DNA of 64,000 bases from Escherichia phage EF202P1: sequence record OP172796.1; one strand, given 5' to 3'. The notes below the pieces were generated by a model. The model did no database searches and was not told the origin of the DNA. It worked only from the letters and a program-made list of their open reading frames with translations. Position 1 is the first letter of the stretch. Each line of letters begins with the position of its first letter. The translations under genes and the position numbers were made by a program. Positions 45,560-45,953 of this stretch are shown here, in pieces.

Positions 45560-45953
45560 ACTTTAGTTGATTGTTAAGTTGTTTGTAAAGAACCCTCAAC
45601 AGAAGACTCTTTAGAAACTTGGTAGATTTTTAATGTGGCTACTACCATCCACCCATACCATGCCACACCACACCGGACCTTACCTAACCCGACCTTACCA
45701 TACCTGACCTAACCCTACCATACATTATTAAAAGACCCTGTTTAAAGACCTTTTAAAAAGGTAAGTCTCATTTTTATGTAGCTGAGACTAACTACCCACA
45801 CCAAACCATAGCATACATCGCATTACCGGACAGAACCATACTTTACCAAACATCACTTAAAAACCCTCTTAGAAGACTCTTAAGTGATGCTGGTGAGTAC
45901 CCGTTGGTTTATGCTGCTCAGTATACTCACCAAATTTTCTATGTCAACAACTT
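45560..45953. repeat. structured intergenic repeat region R2 (paralogous to R1)
   Basis: Hairpins at 45621-45646 (GGTAG/CTACC, compensatory to GGCAG/CTGCC in R1), 45764-45789 (near-identical ~70-bp unit to 44178-44247), 45893-45931; shared flank AAGACTCTTAAGTGATG. Confidence 0.6.

Follow-up and report, generated by a model that had tools for sequence, protein, structure and literature searches.

Our analysis of 64,000 nucleotides of Escherichia phage EF202P1 (sequence record OP172796.1; this whole stretch is the window) makes us very confident that two repeated intergenic regions flanking a two-gene cassette, R2 on its upstream side and R1 on its downstream side, together make up an array of guide RNAs that belongs to a type II VIPR (Viral Interference Programmable Repeat) system and serves the adjoining Cas7-like protein. 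R1 spans 43985-44513; R2 is better given as 45545-45953, with the start of the first cassette gene, vipr, at the ATG at 45544, as in the annotation of Escherichia phage SUSP1. SUSP1 (Ounavirinae) is the type II model phage, and in the VIPR layout intergenic vrRNAs lie on either side of a gene for a minimal RAMP protein (Vipr) and an accessory gene (vap); each vrRNA is composed of 9-16 YNNGG repeats (Y, pyrimidine; N, any nucleotide), in which GGY is conserved and NN hypervariable, and of an invariant 3' tail, which contains a pseudoknot in the SUSP1 clade, a clade for which 41 vrRNAs are counted (10.64898/2026.04.26.720920). The NN dinucleotides pair with double-stranded DNA with one base skipped per unit, transcription is repressed, Vap1 enhances the effect, and the guides of the SUSP1 clade converge on a satellite phage in E. 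coli genomes (10.64898/2026.04.26.720920). The window holds each of these parts: a Vipr RAMP, an adjacent vap, flanking vrRNAs, a pseudoknot tail, and targets that are read with a 1-nt skip, without self-targeting. Since its Vipr and Vap1 are 98.5% and 99% identical to those of SUSP1, the locus is the ortholog of the type II VIPR system.

The minus strand carries every gene between 42 and 48 kb of the window, and read on this strand R1 and R2 consist mostly of a GGTNN repeat with a period of 5 nt. A scan of the 64 kb for (GGTNN)4GGT with at most two mismatches returned 22 matches against 0.04 expected, all of them within R1 or R2 and none elsewhere. An earlier note on this DNA had described R1 and R2 as paralogs with a compensatory stem change; it had read the plus strand and therefore saw the CA-rich complement and missed the GGYNN code on the sense strand, so that the periodic repeat is absent from it. 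All of the elements it did name were found, within about 1 nt. The R2 hairpin GGTAG (45621-45625)-ATTTTTAATGTGGCTA-CTACC (45642-45646) and its R1 counterpart GGCAG (44077-44081)-ATTTTTTATAAGGCTA-CTGCC (44098-44102) both have a 16-nt spacer, and a double change that preserves pairing sets their stems apart. Over 72 aligned columns the ~70-bp unit at 45726-45797 agrees with 44178-44247 in 68 (97% over 60 nt in a comparison of repeat families), and the flank AAGACTCTTAAGTGATG is common to both regions (45873-45889 and 44343-44359). The alignment of shared units and hairpins thus bears out the paralogy, and CCTTTTTAAAAGGTCTTTAA occurs three times against 0.04 expected, which places the R1/R2 similarity far above chance.

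The repeat has the composition of a guide. We extracted tracts from 24 Felixounavirus and Suspvirus loci (86 in total, 68 unique, 9-19 units each). Across the 68 unique tracts position 1 is G in 77%, position 2 is G in 98% and position 3 is a pyrimidine in 99%, and the NN positions 4 and 5 carry 1.92 and 1.90 bits of entropy; the guides are hypervariable between phages otherwise 92-99% identical. On the gene-sense strand a unit consists of a GGYNN tract of 58-79 nt, then a 32-nt pseudoknot, then a long hairpin. The number of units varies from one to four upstream and one to three downstream of the gene pair, and the five tracts of the window have 11-15 pentamers each.

The first cassette gene encodes a protein of 195 amino acids; over 520 homologs of it occur in phages, in prophages and in some chromosomes. 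Its AlphaFold2 model (pLDDT 95, pTM 0.87; 39 homologs in the alignment) gave as best Foldseek matches in the PDB Csm3/Cas7 proteins and some Cas6 proteins, from type III, VII and III-B complexes (probability 1.0, TM ~0.5), so that the model identifies it as a RAMP protein. It matches PDB entry 36pp, 'SUSP1 Vipr protein', at 192 of 195 positions. Cryo-electron microscopy of the SUSP1 complex revealed one Vipr per repeat, with GGY buried by H17, D177, R138, W178, R179 and others, and resolved the 3' pseudoknot of vrRNA1, which caps the RNA (10.64898/2026.04.26.720927). The GGY-contact residues H17, E71, M72, R138, C173, D177, W178 and R179 are all present in the Vipr of the window. The second protein, of 146 amino acids, is identical to SUSP1 agp038 (Vap1) at 145 positions. 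Its own model (pLDDT 76) yields weak winged-helix-like matches with an E-value of about 1, and vap1 was predicted to be DNA-binding in the VIPR description (10.64898/2026.04.26.720920). A word-based homolog search with vap1 found three relatives, and a profile built from syntenic open reading frames recovers a fast-evolving family that always adjoins the RAMP gene. Neither cassette protein has a match in Pfam, NCBIfam or PADLOC, cas gene families included, and in PHROGs both fall in families of 'unknown function'. A CRISPR-Cas array was ruled out for R1 and R2: the units are 5 nt long with embedded variable dinucleotides, no cas family matches, and Rfam reports tRNAs only.

The features of the locus, listed in the direction of transcription with (-) for the minus strand, are as follows:

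45920-45947 (-): sigma-70-type promoter TTGACA-16-TATACT, 11/12 consensus positions, firing into R2 and on into vipr; identical in SUSP1, kept in Felix O1 and annotated as a promoter in phage AYO145A
45892-45931 (-): leader palindrome GGTGAGTA...TACTCACC, overlapping the -10 box, conserved in SUSP1 and Felix O1; this is the second R2 hairpin that had been called different from that of R1
45851-45889 (-): leader copy of 'hairpin 2', CATCACTTAAGAGTCTTC-TAA-GAGGGTTTTTAAGTGATG, 39 nt, directly before the first repeat tract; the same element follows pseudoknots inside the arrays
45764-45856 (-): vrRNA U1, with the tract at 45798-45856 (11-12 units) and a type A pseudoknot at 45764-45795
45728-45756 (-): hairpin 2 type A, TTAAAAGGTCTT-TAAA..-AGGGTCTTTTAA, between U1 and U2 and within the ~70-bp unit
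45621-45727 (-): vrRNA U2, with 14 clean GGYNN units at 45651-45727 and a type C pseudoknot at 45621-45652
45576-45620 (-): hairpin 2 type C, between U2 and the vipr ribosome-binding site, conserved in all loci
44957-45544 (-): vipr, 195 amino acids, minimal RAMP (Cas7/Csm3-like) by its model
44514-44954 (-): vap1, 146-amino-acid accessory protein
44480-44502 (-): canonical intrinsic terminator AGCCTC-TTCG-GAGGCT plus T-run (stem-loop 44487-44502) after vap1, occupying the pseudoknot position in front of a hairpin-2 copy at 44453-44481
44361-44452 (-): vrRNA D1, 11 units and a type B pseudoknot
44214-44326 (-): vrRNA D2, 15 units and a type A pseudoknot; the R1 copy of the ~70-bp unit
44077-44178 (-): vrRNA D3, 13 units and a type D pseudoknot, whose stem 2 is the R1 hairpin GGCAG/CTGCC
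44030-44076 (-): terminal long hairpin, enclosing the -35 box of the next gene's promoter
44023-44057 (-): promoter for the next gene (43601-43984), annotated as a promoter in AYO145A

Automated annotations of relatives mark short 'repeat_region' features inside R1 and leave them uninterpreted.

The constant part of each unit has the hallmarks of a conserved RNA structure. The 32-nt element fits an H-type pseudoknot, S1a(4)-L1(2)-S2a(5-7)-L2-S1b(4)-A-rich L3-S2b, and occurs in the versions GTAG..AGTCTCA..CTAC..TGAGACT, GTAG..AATCGGA..CTAC..TTCGATT, GTGG..GGTAG..CCAC..CTACC (C) and AAGG..GGCAG..CCTT..CTGCC (D). Among 14 distinct sequences from the 24 loci, 95.5% of cells are paired and nine of the 11 pairs have changes on both sides; when the partners were slid by one to three columns as a control, pairing fell to 26-36%. 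The R2 hairpin at 45621-45646 is stem 2 of the U2 pseudoknot, whose tail is nearly identical to that of SUSP1 vrRNA1. The compensatory C:G to T:A change reported earlier is therefore real and its hairpins belong to a structured element, as the covariation indicates; they are stems of a conserved pseudoknot, and the R1/R2 similarity is not limited to generic terminator hairpins. A search for canonical terminators between 43.5 and 46.5 kb found the single site at 44487-44502, and the flagged hairpins have 12-16 nt A-rich loops and lack a T-run. A scan of the whole window at Rfam gathering thresholds returned tRNAs only.

The guides also find targets where the VIPR model places them. The satellite baseplate protein is 72% identical to YP_009199407.1 of SUSP1 (10.64898/2026.04.26.720920), and with the gene for YP_009199407.1 as a probe we found that 474 of the 5,426 complete E. 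coli genomes (~9%) carry homologous genes in the chromosome. The satellite island is ~10-12 kb long and carries a large and a small serine recombinase gene, small open reading frames, a tape measure gene and a baseplate gene that is related to the phage's own. Ten such islands were scanned with 63 unique NN strings, and a guide was counted when at least 80% of its NN letters matched. The 1-nt skip brought 46 of the 63 guides to this cut-off, compared with 0, 2 and 1 guides for skips of 0, 2 and 3 and with three of 200 random guides of the same composition; in a scan of six islands, all of the matches listed lie inside the islands. Four of the five guides of the window (U1, D1, D2 and D3) are at or above 80%. 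The best matches are as follows (L numbers are our handles for loci):

U1 (R2): 24/24 at L034 9778-9813, in a hypothetical/'transposase' gene, skipped bases at codon position 3; 21-23/24 in five other islands
U2 (R2): 21/28 overall in the satellite baseplate gene (L031 15569-15610, L041 10066-10107), with units 2-11 giving 20/20 contiguous matches and the last three units unmatched
D1: 20/22 at L043 2015-2047, 30-60 bp upstream of the satellite small recombinase gene
D2: 26/32 in the large serine recombinase gene (L033 14411-14458 and L036), skipped bases at codon position 3
D3: 23/26 in a small hypothetical gene (L031 10415-10453), in wobble phase

Among the E. coli strains with matching satellites are JNEC-KY173 for U1, 2012EL-2448 for D1 and PAR for D3. 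No self-target for the five guides was found in the window, where the best match was 0.73. An exact-pattern scan of IMG/VR with the core of the U2 guide gave no match, and three matches to the core of the D1 guide were set aside as chance, since they failed to extend and lay in contigs of low G+C content. This pattern of targets fits the preprints' view of VIPR as a weapon in the conflict between phages and satellites.

The satellites carry arrays of this kind as well. The satellite of E. coli JX21CE35 (L041) has at 1540-1760 on the minus strand a promoter TTGACG-17-TATAAT, a 13-unit vrRNA with a C-like pseudoknot that shows a further compensatory stem (GTCG/CGAC), and a terminator, with no vipr gene; a GGYNN array lies in another satellite at L035 5044-5128 (-). 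The guide encoded by L041, read with the 1-nt skip, matches 22/24 at L034 1501-1536 and 21/24 at L036 596-631, both in the torZ-cmoB intergenic region, outside the annotated island and near its integration site. Satellite-encoded vrRNAs are mentioned in the VIPR description (10.64898/2026.04.26.720920).

How the system would act in this phage can be sketched from its SUSP1 ortholog, for which small RNA sequencing revealed discrete ~100-nt RNAs that co-purify with Vipr (10.64898/2026.04.26.720920). We envision a scenario in which transcription of the minus strand yields from each unit a vrRNA with 11-15 GGYNN pentamers at its 5' end and the 32-nt pseudoknot as a cap at its 3' end, successive vrRNAs being separated by the long hairpin. 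Vipr would polymerise along the tract, one protomer per pentamer, each protomer burying GGY and presenting NN, and the presented dinucleotides would pair with double-stranded DNA such that every third target base is skipped. The bound filament would block transcription with no nuclease, Vap1 would enhance silencing, and the guides of this phage, by our computed matches, would be directed at the ~10-12 kb satellite island of E. coli. From the orthology we infer that the vrRNAs of the window are likewise expressed as ~100-nt RNAs, co-purify with Vipr, bind double-stranded DNA and silence. The paralogy of R1 and R2 reflects the repeated constant part (pseudoknot and hairpin 2) of successive vrRNA genes, and the differences between units are the programmable NN letters and the covarying stems.

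Several points weigh against this model. In U1 only five of 11 clear pentamers have a strict GGY; all but one of the others retain G at position 2 and a pyrimidine at position 3, and even in this guide, with its perfect target, the first pentamer position is relaxed (NGY). The overall NN match of U2 is 75%, under the 80% cut-off of the preprints, and its skipped bases fall on codon position 1 and not on the wobble position, where the skipped base of most reported VIPR targets lies (10.64898/2026.04.26.720920). We found no promoter for the three downstream vrRNAs, which lie behind the canonical terminator. The pseudoknot covariation comes from about four or five independent tail types, with a structure derived from the same sequences. 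Finally, all published work on the mechanism comes from a single laboratory, in two preprints, though a PDB entry exists, and for this phage the mechanism is carried over from SUSP1 by orthology.

Comparison with other phages ties the repeats to the gene pair. The 3.5 kb around R2 are 92-94% identical to many Felix O1-like myoviruses (Felixounavirus, genomes ~88 kb), a similarity that identifies the window phage as Felix O1-like. In each of the 21 close loci the gene pair has sense-strand GGYNN runs on either side. Sense-strand GGYNN arrays also surround the same pair in four of six phage contigs whose RAMP is 37-40% identical (L022, L024, L025 and L027; inspection covered all of the six but L026). 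In L027 arrays stand ahead of the first gene, in the gap between the two and behind the second, and they abut ribosome-binding sites. A 146-kb IMG/VR contig whose Vipr is 40% identical (L022) has at 3560-4900 about 11 tandem units of ~110 nt with a different tail hairpin, each combining the conserved hairpin tail GAACGAAGCCGCTTCGCAAGAGGCGGTTTCCTTGAGCGAATC with a G-rich periodic tract. In L024 and L025, apparently one element, the arrays follow the RAMP gene, and a fifth contig, L023, missed by a scan for GGT only, has GGC/GGT-NN repeats on reading. Distant phages thus carry the arrays beside the gene pair, which assigns the repeats to the protein rather than to the site of insertion. The repeats are, as the earlier note supposed, functionally tied to the two genes that they bracket.

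Phages without the pair are informative too. Vipr is at least 90% identical in ~117 Felix O1-like phage records, and the flanks match in 259. Felix O1 itself (NC_005282.1, L028) lacks vipr and vap between the ligase gene and p159; at 686-967 it has the R2 promoter, the leader, hairpin 2, one 63-nt GGYNN-like tract, the type D pseudoknot and the p159 promoter. This orphan unit is likely the expected product of recombination between hairpin 2 of the R2 leader and the copy before the last R1 unit, or the reverse. Its guide has no target above background in the ten satellites (best 0.71). The D3 guide (window 44107-44178) is essentially the same as that at ~2332-2393 of L014; it lies there upstream of vipr and in the window downstream of vap, so guides move between positions. 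The U1 guide is common to the window, L006 and L014. On these sequence comparisons guides seem to change places within the arrays and to pass from phage to phage. We tentatively raise the idea, which we think has a small chance of being right, that the constant tails (pseudoknot and 39-nt hairpin 2) double as recombination handles by which whole guides are swapped among positions of an array and among co-infecting phages, the repertoire is updated without Cas1 and the system is cleanly excised to leave an orphan promoter and vrRNA unit in Vipr-less phages such as Felix O1 and in satellites, the orphan perhaps still working in trans by borrowing the Vipr of a co-infecting phage or, as a decoy, by titrating it. 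The guide common to L014 and the window, the Felix O1 hybrid and the satellite vrRNA without vipr are compatible with this idea and are not tests of it.

The earlier note had suggested that R1 and R2 delimit an acquired cassette or supply its regulation; its observation is confirmed, and its interpretation was partly right and is partly supported, with the function of the regions missed. The cassette is indeed present in some relatives and absent from others, Felix O1 lacking both genes. The further step, to see in R1 and R2 the edges of a mobile gene pair gained in recent times, as scars of its insertion or as target-site duplications from a transposase or from homing, could draw on the occurrence of the cassette in about half of the related phages, on its absence from Felix O1 and on homing endonuclease genes annotated nearby in relatives. 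However, the Felix O1 site shows no junction resembling a target-site duplication; it holds a clean hybrid unit of the kind that homologous recombination between repeats of the array would leave. Nor do short duplications resemble these repeats, which extend over hundreds of nucleotides, are tandem internally and vary in copy number. GGYNN arrays accompany the gene pair even in very distant phages whose flanks are unrelated, and no transposase or integrase lies within the cassette. We consider insertion borders highly improbable.

Regulation of the cassette fares little better as the primary role of these regions. Ordinary cis-regulatory untranslated regions, with stacked terminators, promoters and attenuators for vipr, vap and the next gene and with the G-rich repeats serving in TRAP-like autoregulation or as anti-Rho elements, would account for the strong promoter that starts R2, the terminator after vap and the further promoter that ends R1, for arrays that abut ribosome-binding sites in L027, and for the binding of GGY repeats by Vipr. 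A cis-acting site would not, however, tolerate NN positions that are near-maximally variable among phages 92-99% identical. The NN strings match foreign satellite genes under one reading rule only, SUSP1 makes discrete ~100-nt RNAs that co-purify with Vipr, and the array hairpins, with long A-rich loops and no T-run, are not terminator-like. A purely cis-regulatory role is thus very unlikely, and the regions are best explained as tandem guide-RNA genes used by the cassette protein. The chance seems negligible that the strand-asymmetric G-rich repeats are an R-loop replication origin of the T4 or ColE1 kind, or iterons for an initiator. A G-rich non-template strand does lie behind a strong promoter, and ligase and polymerase genes adjoin; yet most of the arrays are missing from Felix O1 and from about half of the genus, the arrays track vipr across unrelated contexts that include prophages and chromosomes, and their periodicity and sequence rules fit the Vipr binding code exactly. 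Phage-specific promoters, stacked terminators, Rho utilization (rut) or anti-Rho sites, an R-loop origin, iterons and a TRAP-like cis-regulator were all dropped on the RAMP fold and the literature match. The PhageMaP study of Bas63 holds no data on these intergenic regions.

The guide-array model is sharpened by comparison with known systems. The window and SUSP1 have in common the genomic slot between the DNA ligase gene and the homolog of Felix01p159, the promoter, leader, tail types (the SUSP1 vrRNA1 pseudoknot being that of U2) and GGYNN tracts, the class of target (an E. coli satellite) and the 1-nt skip rule. They differ in that SUSP1 has one upstream vrRNA and the window two, with three downstream; all five guides of the window are unlike the four of SUSP1 (vrRNA1-4); the stretch from the ligase gene to the promoter is longer in SUSP1, by ~170 nt; and SUSP1 belongs to the genus Suspvirus whereas the window phage is a Felixounavirus. 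With the backbone of class 1 CRISPR-Cas complexes (types III-A, IV-B and VII) the system shares the RAMP fold with its RRM core, G-loop and thumb, the loading of one Cas7/Csm3 protomer per fixed number of guide nucleotides, and tandem arrays adjoining the protein gene in which a variable guide is joined to a constant structured handle. The periodicity is 5 nt in VIPR and 6 nt in Cas7, the VIPR target is read with a 1-nt skip, and three of every five VIPR guide bases are constant and buried, so that NN alone pairs. VIPR also lacks Cas1/Cas2 adaptation, Cas6, Cas5, Cas8, Cas10, Cas11 and a nuclease.

Two other kinds of RNA invite comparison. Racr RNAs and solitary phage CRISPR repeats are likewise small structured repeat RNAs that lie in phage intergenic regions and are loaded onto RAMP proteins; Racr RNAs poison the Cas complexes of the host by mimicry of its CRISPR repeats, whereas the window phage encodes its own RAMP, and its RNAs carry programmable guides against another mobile element. 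TRAP binds 11 (G/U)AG triplets separated by 2-3 nt spacers, an oligomer thus reading a trinucleotide at ~5-nt spacing on single-stranded RNA. TRAP differs in being a closed ring of unrelated fold that acts in cis on attenuation, with spacer bases that are uninformative.

VIPR is a minimal RNA-guided DNA-binding system, with one ~20-kDa protein, one ~100-nt RNA and no requirement for a protospacer-adjacent motif, and it has been proposed as an ancestor of CRISPR RAMP effectors. It is already known, though only since the 2026 preprints and the PDB entry, and curated family libraries do not yet cover it: Pfam, NCBIfam, PADLOC and Rfam do not yet recognise its parts. What our analysis adds to the preprints are minor points, namely the pseudoknot covariation, the relaxed position 1, the Felix O1 orphan unit and the off-wobble U2 target. 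For annotation, a pair of 'hypothetical proteins' with a pair of long 'intergenic repeat regions', present in roughly half of the Felix O1-like phages used in therapy and typing, becomes a functional anti-satellite weapon. In therapy and in questions of host range, the guides of a phage predict the satellite-carrying E. coli strains with which it can cope. A sequence-only reading can flag such loci, and it is the gene-sense strand that exposes the code.

Some observations concern database records and the surroundings of the locus. The record GU169904.1 ('Staphylococcus phage SA1', 147 kb) has at 91679-92263 a Vipr gene 100% identical to that of the window, and the locus also has matches in two 'Campylobacter' phage records. 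Such hosts are unexpected for a module of enterobacterial phages, and the records may be chimeras or carry a wrong label. In relatives including phages dune and heid (L001/L003) the DNA ligase (the region of window 45954-47090) is annotated as two coding sequences, and HNH homing endonuclease genes lie a few kb from the locus in several relatives. Elsewhere in the window, 25 tRNA genes are clustered at 11178-16480 on the plus strand (ARAGORN), 24 of which reach the Rfam gathering score; such a cluster is presumably typical of Felix O1-like phages.

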